Assembly: GCA_964408085.1 (NCBI GenBank) | Contig: CAYOYB010000004.1 | Span: 81,231-145,230, forward strand | DNA: 64,000 bases | Direction: 5' to 3' | DNA from: an uncultured Muribaculaceae bacterium | GTDB lineage: Bacteria > Bacillota_I > Bacilli_A > RF39 > UBA660 | Shown here: piece by piece, positions 11,984 to 31,190 of the stretch | Position numbering within the stretch: position 1 is the first letter of the stretch | Layout: every line of letters begins with the position of its first letter | Notes under the pieces: generated by a model | Databases searched by the model: none | The model's input: the letters and a program-made list of their open reading frames with translations, nothing else | What the model was told of the DNA's origin: nothing | Program-made: the position numbers and the translations under genes

Positions 11984-13122
11984 TTATTTACTAAGTGGAA
12001 TTCTTAGTGTTTGACCTATACTTAACAAATTACTTTTCAAATTATTATAATTCATTAATTCTTGAGCAGTATAACCATATCTTCTTCCTATTGAATATAA
12101 ATTATCTCCTGATTTAACTGTGTATTCAATATAATTTGCTTGATTATTACCAGTATTTGTTGGTATCTTTAAAGTTTGACCTATATTTAATAAAGTACTA
12201 GTTAAGTTATTATAATCCATTAATTGTTGCGTAGACACACCATATTGTCTTCCAATCGAATATAAACTATCACCTGGTTTAACAGTATAATTTATATAAT
12301 TAACTTGTTCTACATTTGAGGAACTATTAGGTATTTTTATAATCTGACCTATACTTAATAGAGTACTATCTAAATTATTATAATCAAGTAAGTCTTGTAT
12401 TGTAAAACCATATTTTTGACCAATTGAATATAGACTATCGCCACTTTTAACAACATATTCTGTATAATTACCAGTAGGCACTTGCTCAGTCGATGCTATT
12501 GGTATTCTTAGTGTTTGACCAATTTGTAATATATCACTAGTTAAATTATTATAATTTTTAAGTTCTTGTACAGTTAAATCATTTTTTTGCGCTATGCTAT
12601 ATAAACTATCTCCTGCTTTAACAGTATAATTTATATAATTCTTTGGTTCAGTATCTGTACTAGACATTCCTGGAATTTTTAATCGTTGACCTATACTTAA
12701 TGTATTATTAGTTAAGTTATTAGCATTTTTTAATTCATCAACAGTAATATCATATTTTTTAGCTATACTCCAAAGACTATCACCACTTTTAACCGTATAA
12801 TAATCTGAAGAACTTGGGTTTTTAATGTTTTTGTATTCTAATATAGCATCAACTACTGCTTGAGCATATTTTTTATAATCATTTTTTAGTTGATTAACAT
12901 CATCGCCTGTACTATCAAGAAAACCATACTCAACTAAAACGGGTTCAGTTACACCAGTATTACGATGAATAAAATAATAATCCTTTGATGTATCTGATGG
13001 TAATCTTCTTTGATAAGATTTACGTATATTTTGACCAGATTTTTCTAATTCATCTAAAATTAAATCTGCAAGTTCATTTGTATTTCGAAGTGCATAAACT
13101 ACTTCAGCACCATCACCACCTC
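11984..13122 (-). pseudogene. 3' segment of a split N-acetylmuramoyl-L-alanine amidase (end of the Amidase_3 domain plus five LysM repeats)
   Basis: GGDGAEVVYALRN...VLVEYGFLD continues an Amidase_3 domain. Five LysM units (YTVKSGDSLYSI...IGQTLKIP) follow. The first 4 codons of track ORF 11984..13132 derive from the inserted element. Confidence 0.85.
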
Positions 13123-13143
13123 GTGGGTTCATTTACCATTGTT
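13100..13143. repeat. attL-like junction of the inserted element
   Basis: Core CACCTC at 13117-13122 is shared with the other junction. The element arm GTTCATTTACCATTGTT at 13127-13143 is the 16/17 inverted repeat of 28505-28521. Confidence 0.75.
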
Positions 13144-13199
13144 CATTATTTACTTTTGTTCCACATATGTTTATTTTGCGGTTCAAAAGTAAAATAACT

Positions 13200-14090
13200 T
13201 TAATTTTCTTTCACTTTATATTTTTCTAAAAGTTCTTCTCTATGTGAATAAATTTGATTAAGTGATAATTTAGCAAGCAAATCATTCAATTTTATAACTT
13301 CTTCATCATCAATTGTAACAACATCTTTATCTGGATATTCTTCTTGTTTGGAAATCATTATTGCCAAAGATGGAGAAATTGGGTAATATAGTTCTAATTT
13401 ATCCGGTATGCCATCGAAATCACCATGAAAATTAATTGCTGGCTGATCTGAAGTAATAAAATTATCATTTTTACTTTTTAATAAACAAACTTGATAATTT
13501 TTTTCATATAAATATAAGCCTATCTTAAATGCTATACTATGGCGAATTAAAATCCATACATTTTCCCCTCTAATATCAGGATCTTTTAATTTTAAACACA
13601 TATTTTTAGTATTTTCTTTTATTTTTTTCGTTCGACAATATTGTTCAGCAATTGCATGAAAGAATTGTATAGAATTACTTTTTTCTTCTAAAAAAGAAAA
13701 ATCTTTTTTATATAAAAAATCTAACATTGGATTTAATCTATCTTCTACTATACAATTAAAAAATGACTCTTCACTTTGTTTAGCAAAATCTATTATTTCA
13801 TCTCGTTTTACACAACTTTTATAATTATATGCTTCTTTTAATTTCTCGTTAAACTGTTGATATAAAAGCATTAGCTTTTCGCAACCATTTTCTGCAAAAT
13901 ACTTTCCAATTTCAATTTCTTTATCTGTACATGGTATAAACTTATAAAAATTATTTTCTTGACCAATATTCATTATATTTGTTTTAAATATTTTCTTCTT
14001 TTCTCTAAGACAATATATCATTTCTTTAGTAGACCATTTTCTTAAATACTTTCTATAAACATAATGTGGATGTTTTGTAATACTTGTCAC
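13200..14090 (-). CDS. DUF4238-like protein (unknown function)
   Basis: N-terminal HPHYVYRKYLRKW and internal FITSDQPAINF resemble DUF4238 hallmarks (H-Y-x-P/x-x-YL and tSDnP). GTG start with an AGGTGA RBS. Confidence 0.5.
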   Translation of the reverse strand: MTSITKHPHYVYRKYLRKWSTKEMIYCLREKKKIFKTNIMNIGQENNFYKFIPCTDKEIEIGKYFAENGCEKLMLLYQQFNEKLKEAYNYKSCVKRDEIIDFAKQSEESFFNCIVEDRLNPMLDFLYKKDFSFLEEKSNSIQFFHAIAEQYCRTKKIKENTKNMCLKLKDPDIRGENVWILIRHSIAFKIGLYLYEKNYQVCLLKSKNDNFITSDQPAINFHGDFDGIPDKLELYYPISPSLAIMISKQEEYPDKDVVTIDDEEVIKLNDLLAKLSLNQIYSHREELLEKYKVKEN

Positions 14091-14117
14091 TAGATAATCA
14101 CCTATATATATTATACA

Positions 14118-15773
14118 TTATTTTTTTCCTTTTCTACCATAAGGATTTCTCGCTAAATTTCTATTTTCATATTTAAAATTTATTTCTAGAGCTATATCAT
14201 ATTTATATTTGATAGTAATATTTCTATCTTTATCAATCACTATTCTATCGACTAAAGTATCTATCAATTCTTTTTTAGGTTTATTTAAATCCAATAGTTT
14301 TTTAATCTTTTTTGTATAATTTGGTAAAATACTACTTTTGTTTTTAATTTTATATTTTTTTACTTGTTCATTTTCAATACTTTCATTTATTTGTTTTAGT
14401 TTATTTTCTGATTCGCTTGCTAATACCTTATAAGTGTCTGCTGAAATTACCCCATCACATCTATCGTTATATAGAGTTGTTAACATATTTGTTATTTTAT
14501 CTTTTTCAATCTGTAATTCTTTAATAACTTTATCTATATCAGTTGTTTCTTTATGAATATTTTTAACAACTTCATTATTTAATTCATTTACATCAAGTTC
14601 TTTAATTAATTTAGATACTGATTTATTTATTTGTTCCAATATTTGTTCTTCTAAATAATTATATGGATAAAAATGTGAATAACATCTTCCTCTTATTGGA
14701 TCTCTAGAATATCTATTACAATTAACAGACCAATAATCTAACTTTTTTCTATAAAGAACTGTTAGCCTATTTTGACACTCTTTACAAAATAATTTCCCTT
14801 CTAACAATCTTTTTTCCCTATTTGTCTTAACTTCATAATTTCTAGTATTTCGCTTTCTTAAAGTATTAACATATTTAAAAGTCTCTTTATCAACTAATGC
14901 CTCATGGGTATTTTCTACAATAATCCATAATTTTTCGTCTAAAGTTATTTTTTTCTTTGATTTATAATTCACTTTTGTTTGAGTATGCTGAATCATATCA
15001 CCAGTATATATTCTGTTACACAAGATTTTTTTTACTGTAGAAATATTCCAGTTATCTCTATCTATTAATCTTGATGAATAATTAGTTTTTTTATAACCGC
15101 TTGGTGTAACAATATTTTCTTTATTTAATCTATTTGCTATTTCAGTTGGTCCAATTCCTTCTGCACGCCAGTTAAATATATTTTTTACTATAGGAGCAGT
15201 TTCAGGATTAGGGATCAAATGTCCTTTATCTTTTGGATCTCTCATATAACCAAAGCAAGGTAGACTACCAACAAATTTTCCATTTTTTCTTTTTTCATTC
15301 AAAACATTTCTAATTTTAATAGAATTTTGTTTACTATAATAATCATTACAAGCAATTATAAATGTTGATGAATCGTTACTAGCTTGATTTTTAAAACTAT
15401 CATATGACTCAAGTATAGATATAAATCTTACACTATTTTCTGGGAAAAATGTTTCAATATAATAACCTGTCATAACATGATCTCTACCAAGTCTAGATAA
15501 ATCTTTAACTATTACACAATTTATCTTTTTTTGTTTTATATCTTCTATCATTTTTTGAAATCCAGGTCTATCAAAATCTGTACCAGAATATCCATCATCA
15601 ACATATTCTTCAACTAAATTAAATGCATTATTCTTAACATAACTTCTCAATAATTCTTTTTGATTAATTACACTTTCACTATCAGATTCATATTTTTTAT
15701 CTTTATCTTCTTGAGATAATCTTATATAGATTCCAACATTGAAATCCATTCCAGCTAAGTAAGTATTATACAT
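14118..15773 (-). CDS. large serine recombinase
   Basis: N-terminal resolvase domain (VGIYIRLSQED..., VKDLSRLGRDH), a recombinase domain, a Cys-rich zinc ribbon (CKECQNRL...CNRY...RC) and a C-terminal coiled coil. 551 aa. Confidence 0.92.
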   Translation of the reverse strand: MYNTYLAGMDFNVGIYIRLSQEDKDKKYESDSESVINQKELLRSYVKNNAFNLVEEYVDDGYSGTDFDRPGFQKMIEDIKQKKINCVIVKDLSRLGRDHVMTGYYIETFFPENSVRFISILESYDSFKNQASNDSSTFIIACNDYYSKQNSIKIRNVLNEKRKNGKFVGSLPCFGYMRDPKDKGHLIPNPETAPIVKNIFNWRAEGIGPTEIANRLNKENIVTPSGYKKTNYSSRLIDRDNWNISTVKKILCNRIYTGDMIQHTQTKVNYKSKKKITLDEKLWIIVENTHEALVDKETFKYVNTLRKRNTRNYEVKTNREKRLLEGKLFCKECQNRLTVLYRKKLDYWSVNCNRYSRDPIRGRCYSHFYPYNYLEEQILEQINKSVSKLIKELDVNELNNEVVKNIHKETTDIDKVIKELQIEKDKITNMLTTLYNDRCDGVISADTYKVLASESENKLKQINESIENEQVKKYKIKNKSSILPNYTKKIKKLLDLNKPKKELIDTLVDRIVIDKDRNITIKYKYDIALEINFKYENRNLARNPYGRKGKK

Positions 15774-16045
15774 TCATTCCTCCAATCATCTTACTTAATT
15801 GGGTATTAAGACAATTTAATAATAACGCGATATTAAAAAAATTGCAATACATCATTTTTTAATTTCTTCATCTTTTTTTATCTCTTCGATAAGATATTTT
15901 AAAATAAGATCTTTAAACTTAATTTCATTATTCATAACAACACCTATTTAAAGTTATGTTATAATTTCTAATTTTATTATCCTTCATTTTTTCAACCCCC
16001 TTGGTTTCAAATAAAAAACTATCAGTTCCTTTTCACCAATAGTTA

Positions 16046-16237
16046 TTAAATATTAACTTTATTTTTTATAAGCTCATTCTTTTTTATATCAGTATCATCA
16101 AAAAGATTCTTTTCTTCTCTTATAATGTATTTAAAACACTTCCTATTAAACATGTCTTTTAATCTTTCTTCGTTTAGATTTGGTTTATTAGTTTTAAATT
16201 CGTATGTAATCACATAATTAACTTTTCTTTTTTTCAT
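16046..16237 (-). CDS. hypothetical small basic protein
   Basis: 63-aa ORF with an AAGGCGGAG RBS. Confidence 0.45.
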   Translation of the reverse strand: MKKRKVNYVITYEFKTNKPNLNEERLKDMFNRKCFKYIIREEKNLFDDTDIKKNELIKNKVNI

Positions 16238-16305
16238 TTTCTCCGCCTTTCACCAAAATTGTAACGCACTTATAAAAATATGTCAGCAGTAAATTAAATG
16301 CTCAA

Positions 16306-16476
16306 TTACTTATCATTTCTAATAACTACTTCAAGATTTTTATAGATATATTCTTTTAACAATGATTCCATTGCAAATTGAAATGTAACTTTATTATTAG
16401 ATAATACTTTTTGAATTGCTTTCTCAGTATTACTATCTATCCTAAATTTCTTTTGTATAGTTTTATTTGCTCTCAT
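16306..16476 (-). CDS. small ribbon-helix-helix-like protein (56 aa; not in the ORF track)
   Basis: My own translation: MRANKTIQKKFRIDSNTEKAIQKVLSNNKVTFQFAMESLLKEYIYKNLEVVIRNDK. A perfect AAGGAGG RBS lies 7 nt upstream. Confidence 0.5.
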   Translation of the reverse strand: MRANKTIQKKFRIDSNTEKAIQKVLSNNKVTFQFAMESLLKEYIYKNLEVVIRNDK

Positions 16477-16824
16477 ATAAACATCCTCCTTTCTATAATT
16501 TTGGTACCGTCTTTATATTCTTATAGATATAAAAATAAAAATATTTTTAAACTAAAATTAAAGCAGGATAAATCTTGTTTACAAACAACTAGCCAGTGTC
16601 TAGTTTATCCTTATTTTATAAGAGATTTCAAAATTGCAAAGTGTAAACATTTTTCATATTTGTTATACAATTGTATACATCATAATCCTTATTTTATAAA
16701 GGGTGTTATACACTCGTATACATTTTTTTAATACGAAATATTTCATTTTTGATACATAAATAATAATTTTTGTAAAAAAATTTGGTACCAGAATTATATA
16801 TTTTTTAAGGGGCAATTTTGAATA

Positions 16825-16857
16825 CAAAAAACACCAACAAGAATAGCTTGCTGGTGC
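16825..16857 (-). terminator. terminator of the dnd operon
   Basis: Minus strand reads GCACCAGCAAGCTATTCTTGTTGGTG followed by TTTTTTGT. This is one of the few GC-containing hairpins in the region. Confidence 0.6.
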
Positions 16858-17095
16858 AATAAATTTTACAATTATTTCGTATTCTACTATATTGTAACAT
16901 ACAATTGTTGAAAGTCAATAAGGAAAAAATGTTGGATAAATAACTGCAAAAATCTCTGATTAAAATCTAATTAAGCCTTATAAATACTGCATTTTCCTAA
17001 ATAGATACTTTAATGGATATTTGCCTATTTACAATAACAAATAATTTTTTTATACCAATAATTTATAAAAATGCGACTACATTTTTTAATATTTA

Positions 17096-18208
17096 TTATT
17101 CAATTTCATCAAAATCATTATAATCACAATAAGATGATAATGAGAATCTTATTGTCTCCCTTATTTGTTCGTCCGAATAACCACATTCTTTTAAAACATA
17201 TGATGGTTTTGAATTACTACAAGCAGAGCCTGTACTTGCAGATATAATTGAAGAAGCATTTTTCAAAAACAGTTGATTATTATAGCCTTTTATTTGAATA
17301 CTAACTAATCCTGGTATTTTATTCTCAAAATTATTATTTATAATTATTCTATCACCAAATACATCAATCATTTTTTTCTTAAATTGTTTTTCATATTTTT
17401 TTAATATTTCAATATTTTTTTCCAAATCTTTTTCAGCTATTTCAGCAGCTTTACCCAAGCCAACTATTTGATGTACTGCTAAAGTACCACTTCTAAATCC
17501 AAATTCCTGTTCTCCTCCATGTATCAAAGGAGTTATTTTAGGATACAAATTATTTGAATCCTTTCTTATAAATAATATTCCAATACCTTTTGGGCCATAA
17601 AATTTATGTGCAGACATAGACAAAAAATCTATATTTGCCATTTCTTGTAAATTAATATAACCTTTACCAGCAAATTGAGTTGCATCAGTATGAAATAAAA
17701 CATTATGCTTATGACAAATTTCAGATAATCTCTTTACATCGTTAATACTTCCCAATTCATTATTTGCCCACATTATTGAAACTAAAATTGTATTCTCTTT
17801 GATATTTTTTTCTAGGATTTCTGGTAAAACAATTCCCTCACGATTAACAGGTAAAAATGTAACTTCAAAACCGTTTTCTTCTAAAAAAATGGCAGTATTT
17901 TTTATACAAGAATGTTCTACTGCACTTACTATAATATGATTGCCTTTATACTTATTCGCATGAGTATAGCCCTTTAATACCAAATTATTACTTTCAGTAG
18001 AACCACTTGTAAATATTACTTCATCATTTCTACAATTAACAAATGAGGCAACTCTTTGTCTAGCTAAGTCTACTGCTTCTTGAGATTTTAATGCTTGATT
18101 ATAATATTTACTATTAGGATTACCATAAAATTCTGTAATATATGGCAGCATTTCATCACATACCTCAGGTAAAACTCTTGTAGTTGCTGAATTATCTAGA
18201 TATAACAT
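17096..18208 (-). CDS. dndA: cysteine desulfurase DndA (IscS/NifS family)
   Basis: Class V aminotransferase motifs, SAHKFYGPKG (PLP Lys) and the active-site Cys in STGSACS. It is the last gene of the dnd operon. Start at the ATG at 18208, after AAGAAGGTGA. Confidence 0.85.
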   Translation of the reverse strand: MLYLDNSATTRVLPEVCDEMLPYITEFYGNPNSKYYNQALKSQEAVDLARQRVASFVNCRNDEVIFTSGSTESNNLVLKGYTHANKYKGNHIIVSAVEHSCIKNTAIFLEENGFEVTFLPVNREGIVLPEILEKNIKENTILVSIMWANNELGSINDVKRLSEICHKHNVLFHTDATQFAGKGYINLQEMANIDFLSMSAHKFYGPKGIGILFIRKDSNNLYPKITPLIHGGEQEFGFRSGTLAVHQIVGLGKAAEIAEKDLEKNIEILKKYEKQFKKKMIDVFGDRIIINNNFENKIPGLVSIQIKGYNNQLFLKNASSIISASTGSACSNSKPSYVLKECGYSDEQIRETIRFSLSSYCDYNDFDEIE

Positions 18209-18222
18209 TTTATTCACCTTCT

Positions 18223-18609
18223 TTAAAGTAATTCAAAAATGGAATCTAATACCTTGTCGTAATTACCTTTTAACTGATATTCATCATATAATACATTAAC
18301 GCCTCTAGAAATATGTGCATTAAATAATTCAGGAAATAATTCTGAATCTGTAACTTCTTTATTTAATTGTTCAATTAATAATGCCTTATATAATTCATCA
18401 AAATCTCCTGTTATAGTAATTCTTTGATATGTAGCACCTCCGTGATCGTTGTTGATTTCATTGTACTGTTTTCTTGGATCTTCTTTGCTTTTTAATGAGA
18501 GACCTATAGCTATTCTCATAACAGAGGCTTTGGTGGATAATTTTAGTAACTTTTGTAATTCTATTATCTTCTGTTCAACTTCTAATGAAGTAGTTAATCT
18601 ACCATTCAT
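18223..18609 (-). CDS. dndE: DNA sulfur modification protein DndE
   Basis: 128 aa, immediately after dndD. N-terminal RLTTS...LKLSTKASVMRIAIGLSL resembles the DndE family. Confidence 0.7.
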   Translation of the reverse strand: MNGRLTTSLEVEQKIIELQKLLKLSTKASVMRIAIGLSLKSKEDPRKQYNEINNDHGGATYQRITITGDFDELYKALLIEQLNKEVTDSELFPELFNAHISRGVNVLYDEYQLKGNYDKVLDSIFELL

Positions 18610-18611
18610 AA

Positions 18612-20537
18612 TTAAAAATAAGCCTCCTTTATTTCTGTTTTTCCTTCTGTTTCATCATTAATCAATATATAATTTTTACTTAAATTCTTCTTAACAATTT
18701 TATATAAATTTCCTACAATTTCCTCATCTGTTGATAATATTAAAACCTGTTCAGAAATAGTGCATAATATTTTTTCTACGAATAATGCCCTATTTTCCTT
18801 ATCTAACCTAGCTAATGGAGTATCAAATGTAAAAACATTATTACGATCAGACAGTTTAAATATAGACCATACTATAGCAGCGATAAGCAACTGTTTCTCA
18901 CCAGCTGATAAAATAGTAATATCCTTTTCAAACCCTTTATTATCAAATAAAATAATTTCATAAGAATCATTATTTATTTCCATTTTTGTAATGTAATTTT
19001 CCTTCTTATTAATTTCATCAAACTTTTTTACAGCTAATTCTGATATTCTTGTTAAATAATTAATAGTTTGCTTTTTCTTATATTCTTCAGAAACTTTTAG
19101 AATTTTTCTCGCTATAAAAAAACTATTCTCTTCTTTTTTTTCTGAATCTAATTTCTTTTCCATTGTTTCAAGTTCAATAAATGAACTATTAACTTCTAAT
19201 GTAGCCCTTTTTATATTTTTTTCTACATCTCTTATTTTTATTTTCAATTCTTCTAAATCTATTTCTAACACTTTTATTTCTTTTAATAATTTTTGCAAAT
19301 CTTTAGAATTTGCATTTTCATTTTTATCAATTATTTGTTTATATAGTTTAGTACTAGTCAAATCATCTCTGCTACTTAATAAAATTTGTTTTAAAGAATA
19401 AATATCTAATTTTTCATATCTTTCTAAAAATTCATTTATTAGTTTATTTAATTTAGGAGTAGTATTATACTTGATATCTAATTCAGAATCATCAACCATA
19501 TCTAGTAATTCTTTTTTTATTTTTTTAACAGCTTGTTCACCTAAAAGCTGTTCAATTTCATCAACATATTTAAGTAAAATTTTTGGTTTTTCTTTTCGTA
19601 TTTCTTTGCTTATATTTTTAATTCTATTTGCATTAAGATAAAAAACTACATCATCCTCTAAAAAATCCTTTATTAAAGCCATATTTTCTTTTCTATTTTT
19701 TTCAAGCATTTCTAATGAACTTCTCATAGCAAATTTCTTTTTTTCATCAAGTCCACCATAATTTTCAAATTTTTTCATTAAATTTCTTAATTTAAAATGT
19801 TGTTCAGCTTCAGTATTTTTATATCGTATTAAAACATCAGTTAAATTTTTTAGATTTTTTTGGTTTTCATTATATTTATTTCTATATTCCAATAAATTAA
19901 TTTCATCAGTAGAAAAAACCTTTCTACTTTTTTCCTTTTCTATGTAAAAAGATATGTCATCTTCCATTTTTTCAAAAATATTTAAATTAAAATTGACATT
20001 TATAATTTCTCTTAAATATTCTGATATTTTGTTTTCATCTATTATTTGAGCAATTTTTTCGCCATCAAATAACATTGTATCTATTACAGATGGCGGCATT
20101 ATTTCTTTTAATTTTGTTTGCATCTGTTCTATTTCTTCATCATTCAAAAAAATTTTATTTTTCTTAACCCGTAACGTTTCTAATATTGAGTCGTTTACCT
20201 TCTTCCATGATCTAGTAACTGTATAATTATTTTCAATATAATTCTCAATTAGACTGAACTCTATGTCTATTTCGTAGTAGGAAATTTTCTTTTTTAATTC
20301 TACATAATTAAATATCTTTTTTAGTGAATTATAATAAACATTACTATTTGTTTTTAAACCATAGGCATAAGAACCAAATAAACCTGTTTTTATAGAATTT
20401 AATAAAGTTGTCTTACCTGCACCATTTTTTCCACCTATTAAAATAATATTCTTATCCTTACTAACATTAATATTAAATATATTATTTTCATTTCTATATG
20501 GACCGATATTATGTAACTTTATCTTAGTTATTTTCAT
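18612..20537 (-). CDS. dndD: DNA sulfur modification protein DndD (SMC-like ATPase)
   Basis: Walker A GGKNGAGKTT, a long coiled-coil middle, signature LSAGEKQ, and the DndD-type FDTPLARLDKENR. Confidence 0.85.
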   Translation of the reverse strand: MKITKIKLHNIGPYRNENNIFNINVSKDKNIILIGGKNGAGKTTLLNSIKTGLFGSYAYGLKTNSNVYYNSLKKIFNYVELKKKISYYEIDIEFSLIENYIENNYTVTRSWKKVNDSILETLRVKKNKIFLNDEEIEQMQTKLKEIMPPSVIDTMLFDGEKIAQIIDENKISEYLREIINVNFNLNIFEKMEDDISFYIEKEKSRKVFSTDEINLLEYRNKYNENQKNLKNLTDVLIRYKNTEAEQHFKLRNLMKKFENYGGLDEKKKFAMRSSLEMLEKNRKENMALIKDFLEDDVVFYLNANRIKNISKEIRKEKPKILLKYVDEIEQLLGEQAVKKIKKELLDMVDDSELDIKYNTTPKLNKLINEFLERYEKLDIYSLKQILLSSRDDLTSTKLYKQIIDKNENANSKDLQKLLKEIKVLEIDLEELKIKIRDVEKNIKRATLEVNSSFIELETMEKKLDSEKKEENSFFIARKILKVSEEYKKKQTINYLTRISELAVKKFDEINKKENYITKMEINNDSYEIILFDNKGFEKDITILSAGEKQLLIAAIVWSIFKLSDRNNVFTFDTPLARLDKENRALFVEKILCTISEQVLILSTDEEIVGNLYKIVKKNLSKNYILINDETEGKTEIKEAYF

Positions 20538-20556
20538 AGTTGAGTCCTCCTATCTA

Positions 20557-22128
20557 CTAAATATGAATATAATCCTGATTTAATAATTTAGAAAGATCCT
20601 TTTGAAGATTATCTCTCCTTGTTAAACCAAAACTATTTTTTTCTAAATACAAGATTTTTTTAACCAATTCAAAATCAATATTGTTATTTACACAAACATC
20701 TTTTAGTATTTCTAACTCACTTTCTCCTAATAATTTTATATCGTCAGATATAAAATTTAAATCTATTCCCATCACATCTTTATATATTTTACAAACATCG
20801 TTATTCCAATAACCTTGTTCTAACCATAACTTACTAATCGCTACTAATTCATCTTTTGTAATTAATTCATATTCAATCCCATGTTCTTCTTTTAATTTTT
20901 TTTGAACTTCCAATAATTTTCTTAACATATCTTTTCTTTCTTCATAAGTAAATGGACCTAATCCTAATTGACCATAACCTTCATTCAATTTACAAATAAT
21001 TTTAGGGTCATAGCTACTGGATAAATCAATCTTATTATTTTTTATATATTTAACTACTTCAGATTTGGTTTTAAAAATATTCCACTGTTCATTAAAATTA
21101 TCAATACCTGTTTCAATGTTTATCTCTATTTTCTCTCTATCCCCCTTTTTAGGAATAATCAAAATATTATCTTTATGATTTACAGAGGAAAAATAAATTT
21201 GCCCTGTAGCTCTTCTCTTCATTCTTAAATTTCTATTATCTCTAATACTATATAACCAATTTCTATATTCTAATAAAGGAACTAACCATTTTATACCACT
21301 TGTTATAAATCCATTTAATGCTTTATCTTCTGCAACAACAGTACATACCCAACAACCAAATCTACTATTGCCACAACTTCCAGCTTTCTTAGTATCTTCA
21401 TCTACTATTAATGGACATTCTGTACTTGCAGAACTTTCAGCATATAATTTAAATAGCTCTTGGTTATTGCCTCCCCATGGGCAAGGATAATTTAACAATA
21501 CATCCCAAACATCATCTATATTAAAATCTATTATAGGTGCAAATGTAAATGCATTACTAAGAGTCGTATGTCGCATTAGATCGCTGCTTTTTACTGAATG
21601 AGAATTTAAAACACGATCTCTTGAATTACTTTCACCTTTTCTAACACCTAATACCATAATTGCTTCGCCATTAGCAGCTACTATATCCCTAATAAATCTA
21701 TTCGCAGGTTCAATTTTCATTCGATCAGTACACCATCTAAATGTTTGATTAGGGCAAGGATATCCCTTTCCAATTAAATTAGCCCAAAAAGTATTATCAT
21801 ATTGAGGTTGAACTTTATGTGTACTAAGGGGTAAATTATTTTTTTTACCATATTGTTCCATTTTATATAGTGTAGAATTGATCTCATTAATAATTAAAGG
21901 AGTTTCTACTAGAGTATCAGAACTTATAATATATACATGTTTTTTTAATTTTTCTGGTGCTAACTCAGACAGTGCCGTTAAAACAACAGTACATGTAGCT
22001 GTTGAATCCTTTCCTCCACTATAACCTATAATCCATGGTCTATCATCTTGTAAATAAACTCGTTTTGCTCTATCTATCGCATCTCTATATTTTTTGCCTT
22101 TTTGCTCTAATATGTTTGTAAGTTTCAT
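20557..22128 (-). CDS. dndC: DNA phosphorothioation protein DndC (PAPS-reductase-like ATP pyrophosphatase)
   Basis: P-loop YSGGKDST and a Cys cluster (CGNSRFGCWVC). 523 aa. Confidence 0.88.
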   Translation of the reverse strand: MKLTNILEQKGKKYRDAIDRAKRVYLQDDRPWIIGYSGGKDSTATCTVVLTALSELAPEKLKKHVYIISSDTLVETPLIINEINSTLYKMEQYGKKNNLPLSTHKVQPQYDNTFWANLIGKGYPCPNQTFRWCTDRMKIEPANRFIRDIVAANGEAIMVLGVRKGESNSRDRVLNSHSVKSSDLMRHTTLSNAFTFAPIIDFNIDDVWDVLLNYPCPWGGNNQELFKLYAESSASTECPLIVDEDTKKAGSCGNSRFGCWVCTVVAEDKALNGFITSGIKWLVPLLEYRNWLYSIRDNRNLRMKRRATGQIYFSSVNHKDNILIIPKKGDREKIEINIETGIDNFNEQWNIFKTKSEVVKYIKNNKIDLSSSYDPKIICKLNEGYGQLGLGPFTYEERKDMLRKLLEVQKKLKEEHGIEYELITKDELVAISKLWLEQGYWNNDVCKIYKDVMGIDLNFISDDIKLLGESELEILKDVCVNNNIDFELVKKILYLEKNSFGLTRRDNLQKDLSKLLNQDYIHI

Positions 22129-22148
22129 AACTGCACTTCCTCTTTACT

Positions 22149-22652
22149 TTATAGTCCCTCTTCCTCCAAAATTTCATTAATAGTCTTTGCACCCAAATTA
22201 CTTTTTTCGAAGAATTTATCTATTATATCTTTTATATTATCAACTTGCTTATCAAAAATAACGTCTGAAAGCATATTATACAATATGTCAATTCCACCCA
22301 TAGCATAATCATCAAAAAGTTCTTTTTTATGTAATTTTCGAGGATTTGCTATAGAATTTTCTTCAAATGATAATTTCATAGCATTTTCAGCATCAACATC
22401 TATTTCATCACTCAAGCAAATTATTTGATATAAAAAATCAATTTTATCAGCTCTATTTTGCAATACATTTCTTGGTAAATTAGCAGTTATTGAGTTATCA
22501 TTATCTTGAACATCTTTTTGATTATTAATAAATCCAAGCACCCCTGACATCATATAAATATCAACCAAATCAAAACCATACTTATTTTTTAATTCTTGAT
22601 ATTTTTCTGCTTTTTTACCCTTTATTACAATATCAGTTTGAAAAGTTAACAT
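22149..22652 (-). CDS. small helical dnd-associated protein (167 aa), function unknown
   Basis: Translationally coupled: it overlaps the upstream ATPase gene by 7 nt and ends 20 nt before dndC. No DGQHR (DndB) motif. Confidence 0.5.
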   Translation of the reverse strand: MLTFQTDIVIKGKKAEKYQELKNKYGFDLVDIYMMSGVLGFINNQKDVQDNDNSITANLPRNVLQNRADKIDFLYQIICLSDEIDVDAENAMKLSFEENSIANPRKLHKKELFDDYAMGGIDILYNMLSDVIFDKQVDNIKDIIDKFFEKSNLGAKTINEILEEEGL

Positions 22653-24637
22653 TTAATTATATCCCCCTTCTCAACTAATGAGACGCTAGACGTTGTTCCA
22701 ACTTTGTCTATATCATACATTAATCCAATTCTATCTTTCAATGTATCTTCAACTACACCATCCCATTGACTATCTGAAGTGAACAATATTATTTGGTCTG
22801 TTAAAGAAGGTATTATTGATGTTACATTTTTCCTATGACTTAAATCTAATTTAGCAAAAGGGGCATCCATTACTAATGTAAATCTATCATCATCTGATAA
22901 TTCCGTTGTTTCGTCTTTTTCTCTAGAAATAAATTCTTTTGCAATTGATATAATGGATCCAACAAAAGCAAAACTTGTAACAATTTTTTCGCCTTCAGAT
23001 AATGTAGTCGTTTTAAATTCATCAGTTACATTAAAATTATAATCATCTTCAATATAAATTGATTTTTCAGAATTTAACATCTTAGATAAAAGTTCACTTA
23101 TTTTATTCTGTAAATCATCTTTAACTTCTCTTTCTTTTTTATTTAATCTATTAGTCATATCATTTATCAATTTTTGGCATATATCTACTTTAAATTGAAC
23201 AGCATCATTAATATTACTAGAAACAGTAATCCTACTTCGTTCATCTTCTTTATTTCTTTGGGATTGCTTCATAACTTCTATTTGATTTTTACAACTACCA
23301 ATAGCTTGATTCTTAGAAGCAATTGAATTTCTCAATTGAATATACTCATCATTATATTTAGATAAATCTTGATCACCAACATCAGCAATTAATTTTTCAT
23401 TATCGTTAATTTTATTTGTAATAATATCCTTATTATTTATTAGATTATTATAATCTTCATACATTCTATTGAAATTCTCATAATACTTTCTATTATTTTC
23501 AATTGCATTATTAATATGAACTTCAAGACTTTTTAATAAAACACTATAACTTTCTGGAGGCAAATAACTTTTCAATTTTTCAAGTCTTTTAATTGCATCT
23601 TGATTATTATATAAATTATTTCCACAAATACATACGCCATCATTTAAAATATGATTAATCGCATTTGCATTTATTCCTTCTATTACTTTATCCCTCAGAT
23701 CGCTTTTTTGGATTTTTTCCTGTAATATTTCAAAGGTTGAGCCTAAAAAATAATTAACACTTGCCGTGCCAAATGTTTTAAATATTTGAATTTTCTTTTT
23801 TTCTATTTCGTCTTGAATCTTTTCCATTTGCTTGTTGTATTCAACCCTCTTATTCTGTAATTCTTTTAATGCTGCATTAGACTTTAGAATTTCATTAACT
23901 TTGGATTGCCTTTTTTCTAATTCTATTAATTCATCCTCATATTTTTCTTTATTTTTATTTTCTATATCTAATTTTTCATCTAACAATTTTAAATCTTCAT
24001 TTATCTGATTTAACTTAGAAGAATTATCCGAAACAAATTCAGTCTCAAATTCCTTTTTGGCTTTTTCTAAATGGTACTTAGAATTCTCAAGCACATCTAA
24101 ACCCAAAAGATTTTTTACAGCTTTTGATAAATCTTTTTTCCCTACTCGTTGATTATCAACTAAATCTTGCATTCTTTCACCATCAAACAAGAAATATGTT
24201 GATAAGTCTCTTGGAAATATTTCCCTAATTGCATTTTGAGTAGTTCGTTTGGTTTCTCCAGTTACTGGATCCGAAATAGTAAAAGTCAAATCTTCAACTA
24301 ATTTTTGAATATTACCATTAGAATTTCTAATATAATCAATATATTTTCTACAAGTATATATTTTTTTTGAGTGTTCAAATTCTAAACTGACTTCAACACA
24401 TGCTTTCTCCCCAACAGCAATTTTTGATAATATTTCTTTTGTAATTAATTCGTCAGGATTGTCTAATTTAATTTGCCCATATAAACACCAATTAAAAGCT
24501 TGTAATAAAGTAGTTTTTCCTGCACCATTATTAGCAATAATCACAGTTACATTTTTCTCTTTAGAAGTTGAAAAAGAGATTTCAGTATCGCCTTTAAACT
24601 GTCTAAAGTTGTGTAAATTCATTTTTCTGAATATCAT
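22646..24637 (-). CDS. second DndD-like SMC-type ATPase (paralogue class distinct from dndD)
   Basis: Walker A ANNGAGKTT, an E/K-rich coiled coil, LSEGEK, and VMDAPFAKLDLSHR, which parallels DndD's FDTPLARLDKENR. GAGGTG RBS. Confidence 0.7.
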   Translation of the reverse strand: MIFRKMNLHNFRQFKGDTEISFSTSKEKNVTVIIANNGAGKTTLLQAFNWCLYGQIKLDNPDELITKEILSKIAVGEKACVEVSLEFEHSKKIYTCRKYIDYIRNSNGNIQKLVEDLTFTISDPVTGETKRTTQNAIREIFPRDLSTYFLFDGERMQDLVDNQRVGKKDLSKAVKNLLGLDVLENSKYHLEKAKKEFETEFVSDNSSKLNQINEDLKLLDEKLDIENKNKEKYEDELIELEKRQSKVNEILKSNAALKELQNKRVEYNKQMEKIQDEIEKKKIQIFKTFGTASVNYFLGSTFEILQEKIQKSDLRDKVIEGINANAINHILNDGVCICGNNLYNNQDAIKRLEKLKSYLPPESYSVLLKSLEVHINNAIENNRKYYENFNRMYEDYNNLINNKDIITNKINDNEKLIADVGDQDLSKYNDEYIQLRNSIASKNQAIGSCKNQIEVMKQSQRNKEDERSRITVSSNINDAVQFKVDICQKLINDMTNRLNKKEREVKDDLQNKISELLSKMLNSEKSIYIEDDYNFNVTDEFKTTTLSEGEKIVTSFAFVGSIISIAKEFISREKDETTELSDDDRFTLVMDAPFAKLDLSHRKNVTSIIPSLTDQIILFTSDSQWDGVVEDTLKDRIGLMYDIDKVGTTSSVSLVEKGDIIKC

Positions 24638-24791
24638 TCTTTTTCACCTCTCGCTCAATTATATTTTTTATTACTTTAATCATTTCAGAATCTTTTTTTT
24701 CTTTGGTATTAAAATTTTTCTTTTCCGTAAATATTATTTCATACAAAACTTCTGCAGATATTTCATTAATCAATTCAGATCTACTCTTCAT
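24603..24791 (-). CDS. 62-aa Lys/Glu-rich ORF bridging the helicase and ATPase genes
   Basis: GGAGG lies 8 nt before the ATG. It overlaps the helicase stop by 11 nt and the ATPase start by 35 nt. It fills the only gap in the operon. Confidence 0.35.
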   Translation of the reverse strand: MKSRSELINEISAEVLYEIIFTEKKNFNTKEKKDSEMIKVIKNIIEREVKKNDIQKNEFTQL

Positions 24792-26940
24792 CTATAAAAC
24801 CTCCAACATTATATTTATCCCTAACATCATGTATTTTTTCTTTTTCAATTCCATAAATAGCTAATAAGTCATTAATGAATCTTTCACCCTGATCTTTATT
24901 TTCCGCTAAAGAGTTAAATTCATATACTCTTTTCAATTCACTCTCAACTAAACTAGAACCAGTATAATTTTCTTCTTCACTACATGGAACAGTAACAAAA
25001 TCATGAATATATGCATATTCTTTATCAGGATATAATCGAAGTACTCTTCCCCTTCTTTGAATAAATTCTTTTGGATCTGTACTACTTGAAAGAATAAAAG
25101 CATGCTGAATGGCTGGAATATTCACACCTTCATCAAGACATTTTATTGCAACTATAGCCTGTAGATCTTTTCCTTCACTAAACATTTCTATAATTTCTGA
25201 TCGTTCTTCTGATGTTTCTTCTGATGTGAATTTCCTATTCTTTATACCAAACTCATTCCATAATATCTGACAAACTTTTCTAATTTGTCTTTCTTCACTT
25301 CCATCTATTTCATCAATGGTTTTGGTCGCTCCACAATAAACTAATATATAGTTTTTATTAAAATATTGACTCATCAAATTTCTAAGTACGACTAATTTAT
25401 TACTCGCACCAGCTACTAGTCTTGCTCTTTTTATAAGTAAATTTTTTGCAATGTCATTTATTATAATCTTTCCACTAACTTCTCTGATATTTTGAGCAAT
25501 CCTTAACGAAAGCTTATTATATTCATCTTGTTCTTCCACAGTCAATCTAACAATATGAGGAAAATAATAATATCTAGTCAAAAACCCCTCATTAATAGCT
25601 CTTTCAAGATCAAATGAATAAACCTCTCCACCAAAATAATTATATATAAATTCTGTATTTTCTTCATCTCTAAATCTTCTAGGTGTTGCAGATAACCCCA
25701 ATCTATACTTAAATTTTTCATCTAAGCTTGCTCTCATAGAATTTGTTCCCGCATTATGAGCTTCATCTACAACCAACAATATATCACCATTAACTTTGCT
25801 TAAAAATTTTTGCATATCTTCAGATGAAAATGTAGCATTTGTTGTTACAATAGTAAAATTGTCAATAGTTCCATAATTAAATAATTTAATTTTTCTATAC
25901 ACTTGCTCTTTCCAATTTGGATATACAGAATAACACACTACAGGATTCAAATTAAATTTCTTAACATCTTCTACCCATTGTTCAACCAAATGCTGATATG
26001 GACAAACAATTACAATTACTAATTTTTCAATTTCTTTCCATATTTCAGTTATGCCATATAAACCTGTTAACGTTTTTCCTGTACCAGTAGCCATAGTCAA
26101 CAATCCCATGTATTTATTATTTATCCAATTTGTTATTGCTTCTTTCTGATATTGCCTTGGTTTAAACCAATCAGGAATTAATGGAAATTCTATGTTTTCT
26201 TCGTAAGAAGGAATGATTTCGTTGAATTCTTCATGAGTATTTTCTTTTATATAATCTATTTTTTTAAATTCTAGCAATTTATTTTTTAATGCATCTGGAA
26301 ATGGTTGAATATTTAACCTATTAGTTTTATTATCCCATAAATTTGTAAAATCTATATCATATTCTTTAACATATTCATTTTCATCACTATTCCAAGATTT
26401 GAACACAACAAAAGATTCGAAATTGGTATATTGTCCATTATTAGTTTCATTCATAGAACCAGTAAACATAATTTTATTATGCATCGCATCCTCTATAATA
26501 CCAAATTTTTCATGGTATGCACCATAGTCATCCATTAATGCTATCTTAATATCCAATCTATCATCTGCTATAAGTGTAGCTATATAATTCAATTTTTCAT
26601 TAATGTTTTCAGATTCTATATTATTAAATTCTCTTATCATAGCATCCAATATAACATCCGATTTCATTTTATATCCTAAATTAATAGTATCTATATCCTC
26701 TTTACTAAGTTTTGGAGAAGCTATTATTTCAACTTTACCTCCATTTTCAATCAAATTTGATAGTCCTTGAGAGGCATTAACTAAAGAAGAAATTGTAAAA
26801 TAACCAACTGCCCTTTTATAATAAGTTGCAACTGATAATAAAGGATTATAAAAATCTTTTACCATATTGTTTTTGCTACTTCTATATGATCGTTCTATAC
26901 TAATATCAGTTAACAACATTTTACCACCTATGACTTTCAT
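24781..26940 (-). CDS. PLD-family nuclease domain fused to an SF2 (ResIII/DEAH) helicase
   Basis: Single HKD motif HEKFGIIED in the N-terminal ~230 aa. Helicase motifs MATGTGKT (I), VVDEAHN (II), LSATP (III) and QRRGRVLR (VI). The start could instead be Met8 at 26919. Confidence 0.8.
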   Translation of the reverse strand: MKVIGGKMLLTDISIERSYRSSKNNMVKDFYNPLLSVATYYKRAVGYFTISSLVNASQGLSNLIENGGKVEIIASPKLSKEDIDTINLGYKMKSDVILDAMIREFNNIESENINEKLNYIATLIADDRLDIKIALMDDYGAYHEKFGIIEDAMHNKIMFTGSMNETNNGQYTNFESFVVFKSWNSDENEYVKEYDIDFTNLWDNKTNRLNIQPFPDALKNKLLEFKKIDYIKENTHEEFNEIIPSYEENIEFPLIPDWFKPRQYQKEAITNWINNKYMGLLTMATGTGKTLTGLYGITEIWKEIEKLVIVIVCPYQHLVEQWVEDVKKFNLNPVVCYSVYPNWKEQVYRKIKLFNYGTIDNFTIVTTNATFSSEDMQKFLSKVNGDILLVVDEAHNAGTNSMRASLDEKFKYRLGLSATPRRFRDEENTEFIYNYFGGEVYSFDLERAINEGFLTRYYYFPHIVRLTVEEQDEYNKLSLRIAQNIREVSGKIIINDIAKNLLIKRARLVAGASNKLVVLRNLMSQYFNKNYILVYCGATKTIDEIDGSEERQIRKVCQILWNEFGIKNRKFTSEETSEERSEIIEMFSEGKDLQAIVAIKCLDEGVNIPAIQHAFILSSSTDPKEFIQRRGRVLRLYPDKEYAYIHDFVTVPCSEEENYTGSSLVESELKRVYEFNSLAENKDQGERFINDLLAIYGIEKEKIHDVRDKYNVGGFIDEE

Positions 26941-27174
26941 TTCTAAGGGAATTTTCCAATATTATTATATCATGTATACTTTGAGTTGTAAATTAAATGG
27001 AGAATCTATACTTAATAATTTATTTTACAAATAAATTAATTTTTTTCGTTATTTTTCATTCTAAATAAAAATATTACAATTAAATATTAAATTATCATTA
27101 ATAACATAATACGATAATAACGCTTTAAACTAAAAAAATCCATACAAAACATGGAAAAGATCGTTTATAAAACA

Positions 27175-27205
27175 TTAAAAAAGGCCCTACCACTAGATAG
27201 TGCCT
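27175..27205 (-). terminator. terminator after fic
   Basis: Hairpin AGGCACTATCTAGTGGTAGGGCCT followed by TTTTTT on the minus strand. Confidence 0.55.
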
Positions 27206-27271
27206 ATATGAAAATAATTTAATATTTTCTTCATTAATAATATGTTATAAATATTAGTTTAGATCAATAAA

Positions 27272-28120
27272 TTAATCTTTCCTATCAAATAATTCTTTAA
27301 TAATTAAATCTTGAGAGTGTAAATTATTATTTTTTCCTAATAATAAATTTTCATAAAATTTAATTAAATAACTACTATCTTCTTTTATATTTAAATAATT
27401 ATTATAATAATTACTTCTTAATAAAGCATTTCTAAAATATACAGATTTATTCTTAAATAAAGTATTATCCACACTATAACCTAAACTTATTAAATATTTT
27501 TCTATAAATAATGCAGTAGTTCTAGTATTACCCTCTCTAAATGGATGAACCTGCCATATACTAGATGAAAATTTAGTAATGCTGTTTATAACTTCTACTA
27601 TATTCATTTCTTTATAGTTTTTTTCTTTTTCTAAAGATATATCATATTCTAATGATTCAGTTAATGTTTTACAATCACCATATGCCACTGAATCATTATT
27701 TAATATTTTTTCATGTTTTGAAAAATCTATTTTTCTAAACTCACCTGCAAACTCATAAACATCTTGAAATAAATATTTATGGACATATTTTAAATAATCA
27801 ACAGATAATTCAAATTTATTTTCTTGTAATAATTCAACTATCCTAGTAGACACAAAATCACATTCTAATTCGCTATGATTTATTTCTTTTTTACCTTCTT
27901 TTTCTATATAATATTCTTTTAATTCATTTTCTACTTGTTCAATAGTTAAATTACCATTAACATTATTACTTACAAGCTTTTCTAAATATTTAGAAGGTTT
28001 TAAATTATCTACTTCCTGTAAACCAATAGCCATATCCCATTGTAATTGTTTTACATAATTATTAGACTTATATTCTTCTTGATATTCATTAACACTTGAA
28101 TCTAATTCTTTTTCACTCAT
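27272..28120 (-). CDS. Fic/Fido-domain protein with a degenerate active-site motif
   Basis: HPFREGNTRTTA compared with the canonical HPFx(D/E)GNGRxxR. 282 aa. Strong AGGAGG RBS. Confidence 0.8.
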   Translation of the reverse strand: MSEKELDSSVNEYQEEYKSNNYVKQLQWDMAIGLQEVDNLKPSKYLEKLVSNNVNGNLTIEQVENELKEYYIEKEGKKEINHSELECDFVSTRIVELLQENKFELSVDYLKYVHKYLFQDVYEFAGEFRKIDFSKHEKILNNDSVAYGDCKTLTESLEYDISLEKEKNYKEMNIVEVINSITKFSSSIWQVHPFREGNTRTTALFIEKYLISLGYSVDNTLFKNKSVYFRNALLRSNYYNNYLNIKEDSSYLIKFYENLLLGKNNNLHSQDLIIKELFDRKD

Positions 28121-28183
28121 AATTTATACCTCCTAACCATTTTTAATTATACCATATTTTTTATAATAATTAAGTTATTATAT

Positions 28184-28441
28184 TTAATTATCTAATTCTA
28201 ATCTATAATAAACCCTTAAATCCATAATAGCTTGTCTAAAAATTTTCTTTTCTTCTTCCTGAGAATAAATTATCACATCATGCAATGTCTTATAAATTGA
28301 TATGACACTTACATTTTTATTATCTAAATATTTATAATTTAAATAAATCAAATCTGCTAATAATCTAGCATCATTTTCTATTCTTAACCTTTTTTCTTCT
28401 TTAATAAAATTCTTTTCGTTTATCGTCATTCCATCCTCCAT
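28184..28441 (-). CDS. hypothetical small protein upstream of fic
   Basis: 85-aa ORF (alternative start at 28429). It begins about 60 nt inside the element's right end. Confidence 0.45.
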   Translation of the reverse strand: MEDGMTINEKNFIKEEKRLRIENDARLLADLIYLNYKYLDNKNVSVISIYKTLHDVIIYSQEEEKKIFRQAIMDLRVYYRLELDN

Positions 28442-28504
28442 TTATTGCGTATTTTTTTACTATTGTTTTATTAAATATACATGTCTCAATACCCAATTAA
28501 ATTT

Positions 28505-28548
28505 AACAATGGTAACTGAACATTTCACCTCCTGCATTTATGTGATTA
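28505..28548. repeat. attR-like junction of the inserted element
   Basis: Element arm AACAATGGTAACTGAAC at 28505-28521. Core CACCTC at 28526-28531. Confidence 0.75.
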
Positions 28549-28790
28549 GACACAACAATTACATCACTATTATTTCCATAAGCTTCTAATATTCTATTTA
28601 CCCTTTCAGTTGGTGATAAAGTCTCATCACTAACTCTAGTCATCTTAACATCCACACCTAAATTTTTAAATAAATCATACATATATTGAGAAATCTCTAA
28701 AGTTAAATCTTTTTCAATTATACCATTGCCACTAGCTCCAGGATCTGAGCCCCCATGACCAGCATCTATAACAACTTTTAAATCATTCAT
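28526..28790 (-). pseudogene. 5' segment of the split N-acetylmuramoyl-L-alanine amidase (Amidase_3 N-terminus)
   Basis: MNDLKVVIDAGHGGSDPGA...VVSNHINAGG, then 7 element-derived codons and a stop in track ORF 28503..28790. Confidence 0.85.
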
Positions 28791-30171: not shown

Positions 30172-31101
30172 CTATAAATCTACAATTTCTCGCCAATTAT
30201 CAGGAAATCCAATTTTATTTAAAATACTATTAAGTGAAACTGTATCAACTTTACTATCTAAAATATCAATTTCATAACCTATCTCAAAAATAATATCGCG
30301 AAATTCTCCATCACTAAGCATTTTTTTCATAATCAAAATAATCGCATATAAATCATTTTTACCATAAATATATTCCCCTTCTTCATCTGTAGAAATATTT
30401 AAAATATTATGGTATTCATTATTAGGAATTACACGACTTGTTCTATGATCATATAAAATATCTTCATGAGCACATAAATTTCTAAAATTTGCTAACAAAG
30501 ATAAATAAATAGATAATGTCTCAACATCAGTTCTATATAACTTAGCAATTTCATTTTGGTCTTCATATTTTAATATACAAAATAATTCAGAAATAATACC
30601 AAAAGATAAAACTTTTACTAAAATCCACATTGGAATATAACCATAATTACTTAAATAGTGAAGAGTAGCTGAATGCTGACGACCATTAACTCTTATCTGT
30701 CTTTTCATTTTATTTAATATATCAAAAACTTGTCTTGAACGAGCTGGATCCTGCGTAAAATTTTCTGGATTCAAATAATCTTTATCCTTAAATCCATATT
30801 TTCTTGATAATTGGTAACTCATAATTGATTTAATATTATTTTCAATAATCAAAATATATTTAAAAATTGTATTACGAATTCTCCTGTCAAACACAAATGT
30901 TGCATATAACTCTTCAAATGTTGTCCCAGAAATAAACTTATCTTTATCAACAGTTGTAAACATATGTCGATAACCATTTATAAAAAAATAATTTTCACGA
31001 AACAAAATTTGCTTTGCAGTCTCTTCATCATTAATAATTAGACCTCTAGATTTTAAAATATCAATTTGTTCATCTAAGTTCTTAAATATTTTAGACTTCA
31101 T
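30172..31101 (-). CDS. Abi_2-family abortive-infection protein (AbiD/AbiF-like)
   Basis: N-terminus FKNLDEQIDILKSRGLIINDEETAKQILFRENYFFINGY is characteristic of Abi_2. Start at 31101 (MKSKIF). Confidence 0.8.
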   Translation of the reverse strand: MKSKIFKNLDEQIDILKSRGLIINDEETAKQILFRENYFFINGYRHMFTTVDKDKFISGTTFEELYATFVFDRRIRNTIFKYILIIENNIKSIMSYQLSRKYGFKDKDYLNPENFTQDPARSRQVFDILNKMKRQIRVNGRQHSATLHYLSNYGYIPMWILVKVLSFGIISELFCILKYEDQNEIAKLYRTDVETLSIYLSLLANFRNLCAHEDILYDHRTSRVIPNNEYHNILNISTDEEGEYIYGKNDLYAIILIMKKMLSDGEFRDIIFEIGYEIDILDSKVDTVSLNSILNKIGFPDNWREIVDL

Positions 31102-31190
31102 ACAATCACCTATAAAAATTATAGCATACAAAATATGAAAATAATATGTTTTTTTCGTGTAATTTATTTGATAAAATAAGACATTTACAT

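Follow-up and report, generated by a model that had tools for sequence, protein, structure and literature searches.

Results

Gene organization of the pbe-dnd locus

The window analysed here is a stretch of 64,000 nucleotides (nt) of contig CAYOYB010000004.1, from an uncultured low-GC Bacilli lineage, and between positions 26940 and 17096 it carries eight close-packed open reading frames (ORFs) on the minus strand, of 719, 62, 663, 167, 523, 641, 128 and 373 amino acids (aa). The 62-, 663- and 167-aa ORFs are co-directional, flanked by a phospholipase D (PLD)-helicase gene (719 aa) and by dndC, and a first-pass annotation, made from the sequence, had described them as a second DndD-like ATPase with two small proteins. 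We suggest that pbeA (26940-24781) together with pbeB, pbeC and pbeD (24791-22149) very probably encodes the restriction side of a phosphorothioate (PT) defence system of the DndCDEA-PbeABCD type, in which host DNA carries a sulfur mark and invaders without it are blocked. The PbeABCD cassette is already published, also under the name of the "CxC ABC-ATPase" system (ABC, ATP-binding cassette), and the genes are therefore not new; the first-pass annotation had overlooked that the system is named and experimentally characterised. Established in this analysis are the family membership of the four Pbe proteins, the conservation of their gene order and catalytic motifs, and the linkage of the cassette to PT writers. 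The features of the locus are the following.

24781-26940, minus strand: pbeA, 719 aa, PLD/HKD nuclease domain fused to a superfamily 2 (SF2) helicase (ResIII and Helicase_C); first gene of the cassette
26506-26514, minus strand: HxK of pbeA (H143-E-K145), the single HKD motif, with GSxN downstream; invariant in orthologues
24603-24791, minus strand: pbeB, 62 aa, Lys/Glu-rich, modelled as a helical hairpin
22646-24637, minus strand: pbeC, 663 aa, CxC-type coiled-coil ABC ATPase, sister clade of DndD
24509-24535, minus strand: Walker A of pbeC (A35-NNGAGKTT-43), from the translation and orthologue conservation
23624-23632, minus strand: CxC of pbeC (C336-I-C338), a putative Zn hook halfway along the coiled coil; invariant in orthologues
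22149-22652, minus strand: pbeD, 167 aa, DndE-like, with two predicted ribbon-helix-helix (RHH) repeats and a helical C-terminal extension
20557-22128, minus strand: dndC, 523 aa, TIGR03183 535 bits, above the cut-off of 290
18612-20537, minus strand: dndD, modification ATPase, 641 aa, TIGR03185 361.7 bits, above the cut-off of 245.85
18223-18609, minus strand: dndE, 128 aa, Pfam DndE 1.5e-16
17096-18217, minus strand: dndA-like cysteine desulfurase, 373 aa, TIGR03235 398.8 bits (below the cut-off of 480), PADLOC DndA 5.7e-130 and PADLOC SspA 7.3e-131
26964-26992, minus strand: best promoter-like site, 24 nt ahead of the start of pbeA, with TTTACA and TATAAT at a spacing of 17 and a TG; a consensus match alone
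16831-16857, minus strand: terminator-like hairpin with T-run, about 240 nt past dndA, the sole one in 15700-28600; a consensus match alone

The pbeB ATG is preceded at 8 nt by GGAGG. The first 11 nt of the gene lie within the end of pbeA and its last 35 nt within the beginning of pbeC, which has a separate ribosome-binding site (RBS), GAGGTGA. The first-pass annotation described a Lys/Glu-rich ORF with a GGAGG RBS bridging the only gap of the operon; the RBS and the space, 143 nt between pbeA and pbeC, were both confirmed, and by the coordinates no other gap in the eight-gene row exceeds 20 nt. The genes pbeC and pbeD share a 7-nt overlap (ATGTTAA) and are translationally coupled, as had been proposed. 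All eight genes of pbeABCD-dndCDEA appear to be transcribed as a single operon; the total number of promoter-like sites is not above chance.

The nuclease-helicase PbeA

Orthologues were drawn from 44 related genome loci, of which 43 have the cassette; the remaining one (L044) is a weak partial match in which the cassette was not recovered. PbeA matches PADLOC PbeA over its full length (4.4e-240) and contains the Pfam domains PLDc_2 (1e-09), ResIII (5.7e-26) and Helicase_C (2.2e-14); TIGR04095 (dnd_restrict_1) gives 522 bits, under its 600-bit cut-off. H143-x-K145 and the G, S, N and E of the subsequent GSMNE are invariant among 37 PbeA orthologues, and the DEAH box is kept in at least 90% of them. 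Because the HxK and GSMNE positions are invariant, the HKD site appears functional and under selection, and this conservation may bear on the dispute, described below, over DNA cleavage by the system.

PbeC is a CxC-type ABC ATPase distinct from DndD

PbeC matches PADLOC PbeC at 1.8e-138 (residues 1-642 on positions 1-639 of the 644-position profile), its best DndD model reaching 2.6e-45, and has an N-terminal AAA_23 domain in Pfam. The first-pass annotation credited the 663-aa protein with the DndD layout, and all the motifs that it quoted are present in the translation (IIANNGAGKTT, LSEGEK and LVMDAPFAKLDLSHR; the 641-aa DndD carries FDTPLARLDKENR). It also held the two ATPases of the operon to be different paralogues, with which the comparisons agree: their pairwise identity of 25% is confined to the N-terminal head (first ~177 residues, E 3e-10), and the DndD equivalog TIGR03185 scores PbeC at 118.9 bits, under its cut-off, versus 361.7 bits for the window DndD.

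In an alignment of 39 PbeC orthologues, C336 and C338, located halfway along the protein and embedded in G+C[ILV]CG, are invariant, while the window DndD has one Cys and no CxC. The GAGKT and the subsequent QAFNWCLYG are conserved across the same orthologues, as are Walker A, signature and Walker B. PbeC resembles DndD (TIGR03185) in having a tandem-RHH partner, a coiled-coil insert of ~370 residues and an ABC head in which Walker A, the LSxGE signature and a D-x-P Walker B are accompanied by an FDGE Q-loop; the CxC motif and the score under the equivalog cut-off set PbeC apart. With the Rad50/SbcC Zn-hook ATPases, PbeC shares an ABC head that an antiparallel coiled coil interrupts, an apex Cys motif and weak N-terminal NCBIfam matches, but its coiled coil is much shorter, its motif is CxC and not CxxC, an Mre11/SbcD partner is lacking and the similarity is confined to the head. 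By motifs and profile scores, PbeC is a DndD-like yet separate paralogue of the CxC Zn-hook type of ABC ATPase.

The label "SMC" given in the first-pass annotation was not sustained. SMC proteins proper have an apex hinge and a coiled coil of ~800-1000 residues (PMC10853773), whereas PbeC has 663 aa in total and a CxC apex, and Pfam SMC_N gives it 27.9 bits, under the cut-off of 40. A true SMC was rejected for the absent hinge and the short coiled coil.

PbeD is a DndE-like protein

The AlphaFold2 (AF2) model of PbeD, built with 30 homologues (predicted local distance difference test, pLDDT, 83.6), has a strand-helix-helix unit twice (E8-11, H13-25, H29-42 and E56-59, H61-66, H68-84), followed by helices. 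In a Foldseek search of the PDB, ranks 1-17 were all DndE (7x4e, 4lrv, 5wtu) and nothing else was credible; the probability was up to 1.00, the target TM-score 0.5-0.63 (0.57-0.63 for 7x4e and 4lrv) and E ~0.015. The predicted fold thus contains the two RHH repeats that mark DndE, so the description of the 167-aa protein as helical stood as far as helices are modelled, DndE-like tandem RHH being the more precise term.

Among 1.84 billion representatives searched with a hidden Markov model (HMM) profile, 309 PbeD relatives were found. Of 76 of these relatives, 38 match TIGR04062 ("DNA phosphorothioation-associated protein 4"; best 1.7e-10) and seven match PADLOC PbeD. Positional orthologues from eight of nine loci match TIGR04062 at 19-24 bits, under the cut-off of 74.25, and this is the sole family that they match, bar one chance-level match at E 0.2. 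The window protein itself gave no match to TIGR04062 at E<=1 and is below the membership cut-off. These comparisons indicate that PbeD is a remote relative of TIGR04062 and not a member by NCBI's rule; the suggestion that it corresponds to dnd system-associated protein 4 therefore stood at the level of the remote family, and failed for the window protein against the model.

Direct scans of the window PbeD gave nothing usable in Pfam, in NCBIfam or, even at E 10, in PADLOC, and neither PbeD nor the 76 family members matched Pfam DndE (PF08870). The family profile against PDB sequences returned only chance matches (UspA1, TetR, E ~0.2), so the sequence by itself falls short of DndE. With hhalign, only a local C-terminal match was obtained (probability 20% against the window DndE, 44% against the DndE profile); the DndE profile is narrow, its homologue search having given only relatives at least 59% identical. 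PbeD is assigned as the PbeD/DndE-cognate protein because of the predicted DndE fold and the transitive links to TIGR04062 and PADLOC PbeD. The DGQHR motif is absent, as the first-pass annotation had stated, and a DndB-like protein was rejected on this absence and on the different fold.

PbeB is a conserved gene

The pbeA-pbeC spacer is filled by an ORF of 51-66 aa in all 38 loci with a readable junction (37, and L014 recovered separately), which answers the earlier call for a check of its conservation. These ORFs have the common motif E..N.KT.....EM[VI]..I[RK]K[IL]I, including those in genomes with PbeC only 24-31% identical. In the non-overlapping part of the gene, comparison with four related loci (L001-L004) gave 15-24 substitutions at third codon positions and, for the first and for the second position, 3-10 each; synonymous codon changes (14-17) exceeded non-synonymous ones (5-11). 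Judged by this codon pattern, PbeB is under purifying selection. Homologues were found in 48 gene-called clusters of the protein collection.

PbeB matches no Pfam model above threshold and none in NCBIfam, nor any in PADLOC even at E 10. Its AF2 model (pLDDT 84) is a helical hairpin with helices 4-29 and 34-51, and the conserved motif falls at the end of helix 1 and the turn. The window protein ends in KNEFTQL (62 aa; 24603-24620) versus KDETA (60 aa) in most close homologues, a variable tail located in the stretch shared with pbeC; no match in the protein collection was identical over the 62 aa, and the best had 93% identity.

As an alternative, the 62-aa ORF could be a fortuitous reading frame in AT-rich spacer DNA, and the 663-aa gene no more than a redundant copy of dndD, in agreement with the missing curated model for the one and the weak DndD match of the other. 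By a rough calculation, 62 codons stay open by chance in one given frame with a probability of ~0.003 at 25% GC. The presence of the ORF in every readable junction with a common motif and the predominance of third-position substitutions refute the first part. The second is refuted by the failed DndD cut-off, the invariant CxC and the association of the cassette also with Ssp writers lacking DndD (see below). Both a spurious ORF and a duplicate DndD were rejected on these grounds, and the probability left to this explanation is practically negligible. PbeB is a real conserved gene.

Related loci and pairing with PT writers

The order A-B-C-D is kept in the 43 related loci wherever the contig is long enough, which is the outcome of the co-occurrence check that the first-pass annotation had proposed. 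The cassette adjoins Dnd or Ssp genes in 33 loci, and in the other 10 the contig breaks off at the cassette or close to it, on one side or both. The writer contexts are the following.

dndCDEA downstream: 4 loci, Bacilli metagenome-assembled genomes (MAGs), PbeC 63-82% identical
SspD/BrxP-like, SspB (DUF4007), SspC and SspA directly upstream: 25 loci
SspB-SspC downstream: 3 loci
SspF downstream: 1 locus

The dndCDEA linkage is limited to the subclade of the window (the window and four loci). Nucleotide similarity between the window and the four related MAGs, at 72-80% identity, is bounded exactly by the operon (window 26930-17090), and since the edges of similarity are those of the operon, the eight genes travel as one unit.

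The 25 loci with Ssp genes upstream (L005, L007, L009, L010, L012, L014-L020, L022-L024, L028-L032, L035, L038, L041-L043) have an eight-gene co-directional Ssp-Pbe cluster (e.g. L010:224-12573), with an SspD/BrxP-like protein of 571 aa, SspB/DUF4007 of 303 aa, SspC of ~1200 aa and SspA of 381 aa. Their hosts are Clostridia, Bacteroidales and others, and their PbeC is 24-31% identical to that of the window. In Bacillaceae (Gottfriedia, Savagea, Peribacillus), the Ssp genes come after the cassette, as SspB-SspC and/or SspF (L021:12512-21597, L026, L040, L006:13757-15439). No published description of the Ssp-Pbe pairing was found in the literature searched.

Several features were seen in single loci. 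In L010 (Clostridiales bacterium VE202-15; 12594-15317), a 907-aa protein with two RNA-polymerase alpha C-terminal domains and a sigma-70 region 4 is encoded directly downstream of pbeD, an odd neighbour for a defence cassette. In L021, an Hhe/PDC-S37-like helicase-nuclease is located upstream and the region looks like a defence island. In Savagea faecisuis (L040:10001-12012), pbeC is present as two ORFs (315 and 339 aa), probably a frameshift or a pseudogene.

A tentative reading of these contexts, to which we give somewhat less than an even chance, is that the Pbe cassette is a portable restriction module serving either type of PT writer, with PbeB a conserved structural subunit in this clade. 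PbeB may in that case be a helical hairpin, as modelled, whose turn carries E, N, K and T as invariant residues, and not a disordered fast-evolving regulator.

Comparison with the characterised PbeABCD system

DndCDEA-PbeABCD was described in Haloterrigena jeotgali A29 (Xiong et al. 2019, Nat Commun 10:1688; PMC6459918). Expressed in Natrinema, the dndCDEA-pbeABCD genes of H. jeotgali gave ~10^4-fold protection against the virus SNJ1, for which pbeB, pbeC and pbeD were strictly required and pbeA partially (PMC6459918). PT-modified virus escapes the system, its activity depends on host PT, and DNA degradation was not detected (PMC6459918). The small proteins there are PbeB of 66 aa and PbeD of 152 aa, and 235 bacterial pbeAC pairs were counted (PMC6459918). 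The cassette was re-annotated by Rakesh et al. (2024, NAR 52:1005; PMC10853773), with PbeA as an SF2 helicase joined to an HKD endoDNase, PbeB as a small, fast-evolving and mainly disordered protein, PbeC as a "CxC" Zn-hook ABC ATPase that is a sister of DndD and not SMC, and PbeD as a divergent DndE with two RHH repeats; in 936 bacterial taxa, DndD and CxC systems were found in tandem (PMC10853773).

The window has all the structural elements of the PbeABCD or CxC ABC-ATPase system, namely PbeA, the CxC of PbeC, the small PbeB gene and a DndE-like PbeD, co-directional in the order A-B-C-D beside PT genes. As in H. jeotgali, four genes stand in identical order, PbeA combines PLD, ResIII and Helicase_C, PbeC has AAA_23, PbeB is ~60 aa and PbeD ~150-170 aa (62 and 167 aa in the window), the cassette adjoins co-directional dndCDEA, and dndB and dndFGH are absent nearby. 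The differences are a bacterial host, the module order (dndCDEA-pbeABCD there, pbeABCD-dndCDEA in the window), and small proteins too diverged for direct PADLOC or NCBIfam matches. With the CxC ABC-ATPase systems (PMC10853773), the locus shares the apex CxC in the coiled coil, the cognate DndE-like tandem-RHH partner directly downstream, the HKD-SF2 helicase and small protein upstream, and the tandem arrangement with a DndD-DndE system. The small protein is described there as mainly disordered and fast-evolving, whereas PbeB of the window clade has a conserved motif and a confident two-helix hairpin model.

Several points weigh against the assignment to PbeABCD. The characterised system is archaeal and distant, and most PbeC relatives are only 24-34% identical to the window PbeC. 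The window PbeB and PbeD match no curated model directly in Pfam, NCBIfam or PADLOC, and the link of PbeD to DndE has weak scores (Foldseek E ~0.015, a local hhalign match at 44% probability). The mechanism is disputed, Xiong et al. having reported no DNA cleavage, while nuclease action is favoured by the conserved HKD site and by the argument of Rakesh et al.

Proposed mechanism and alternatives

For the PbeABCD assignment, we infer the roles of the individual subunits, with possible DNA cleavage by PbeA, along the following lines. DndA, DndC, DndD and DndE would write PT on host DNA at a short consensus site. PbeC would dimerise through its heads and the CxC apex, and the PbeC-PbeD pair, as DndD-DndE, may load on and scan DNA and read the site and its PT status. 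PbeB would be a structural or regulatory adaptor, and PbeA would translocate at the expense of ATP and, as the effector, block the replication of invader DNA that lacks the modification. The first-pass annotation had proposed that one of the two ATPases serves modification and the other sensing or restriction, and this division matches the published genetics of DndCDEA-PbeABCD (PMC6459918).

The parallel of PbeC and PbeD with DndD and DndE in fold and pairing would also suit a second pair for site recognition or for the targeting of modification, which would bring DndA/DndC, or some other modifier, to a second motif while PbeA acted as a nuclease apart from it. Rakesh et al. propose target-site scanning by CxC-DndE, with possible signalling of modification status, and the pairing of some CxC systems with cytosine methylases (PMC10853773). 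The archaeal in-frame pbe deletion plasmids, however, are described as retaining PT modification while each deletion impaired protection, and dndCDEA alone gave PT-modified SNJ1 (PMC6459918). In addition, the 25 loci with upstream Ssp genes pair the cassette with writers that have their own ATPase (SspC) and DNA-binding subunit (SspB), and the nuclease-helicase is always part of the cassette. We consider a second writing pair improbable.

The invariant HKD catalytic residues are in agreement with a different proposal as well, that of an abortive-infection device in which a phage factor removes or titrates an inhibitor, PbeB, and frees the HKD nuclease of PbeA to act on any DNA, including that of the host; this model was proposed for the small protein by Rakesh et al. 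(PMC10853773). In the archaeal system, on the contrary, the pbeB deletion lost protection and was not reported as toxic, and in the absence of PT, pbeABCD showed neither toxicity nor activity (PMC6459918); PbeB is, moreover, conserved and modelled as folded in this clade. This proposal seems to us still less probable than a second writing pair, and restriction by PbeABCD dependent on host PT is the reading that we retain.

The putative element carrying the operon

The operon lies within a split Amidase_3-LysM (N-acetylmuramoyl-L-alanine amidase) gene, whose 95-aa N-terminal part is at 28790-28503 (profile positions 1-78) and whose 382-aa C-terminal part is at 13132-11984 (profile positions 83-173 and five LysM repeats). 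The break points, near 28526 and 13121, have a common GAGGTG in one reading frame. The insert of ~15.4 kb (~13121-28526) contains a large serine recombinase (15773-14118), a DUF4238 gene, the pbe-dnd operon, a Fic gene and an 85-aa ORF, and it looks like an integrative element with the defence system as cargo.

Among the related MAGs, amidase homology in L002 (11600-11941) and in L004 ends at the same base as window 28526, with different sequence beyond. In L004 (17567-21965), the operon has htrA on one side and the amidase fragment on the other and is not inside the break, and the downstream serine recombinase is in the opposite orientation. The operon is thus found at two positions within ~300 bp of each other in related genomes. 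The Fic/DOC gene of the window (27272-28120) is just upstream of pbeA, inside the element, and an Abi_2 (abortive infection) gene (30172-31131) adjoins htrA just outside it; these two add to the defence or toxin-type genes around the operon. A tRNA-Trp (CCA) gene at 11294-11367 on the minus strand lies ~600 nt past the C-terminal amidase fragment, not at the element junction.

Discussion

The genes of the cassette belong to a described system, and the new points of this analysis are modest: a conserved and, by its model, folded PbeB, the Ssp-Pbe pairing and the genomic context of the element. A functional Ssp-Pbe pairing would require PbeCD to recognise the status, of PT or of the site, left by a single-strand as well as by a double-strand PT writer. 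For the mechanism of Pbe, the bacterial PbeB motif with its folded model, an independent DndE-like predicted fold for PbeD and the pairing with Ssp as well as Dnd writers are small gains, none of which alters the general picture of Pbe systems. The names pbeB, pbeC and pbeD can be given to three genes of an uncultured Bacilli lineage that would otherwise be "hypothetical", and their locus can be described as a complete Dnd-Pbe PT restriction-modification system carried on what looks like an integrative element.

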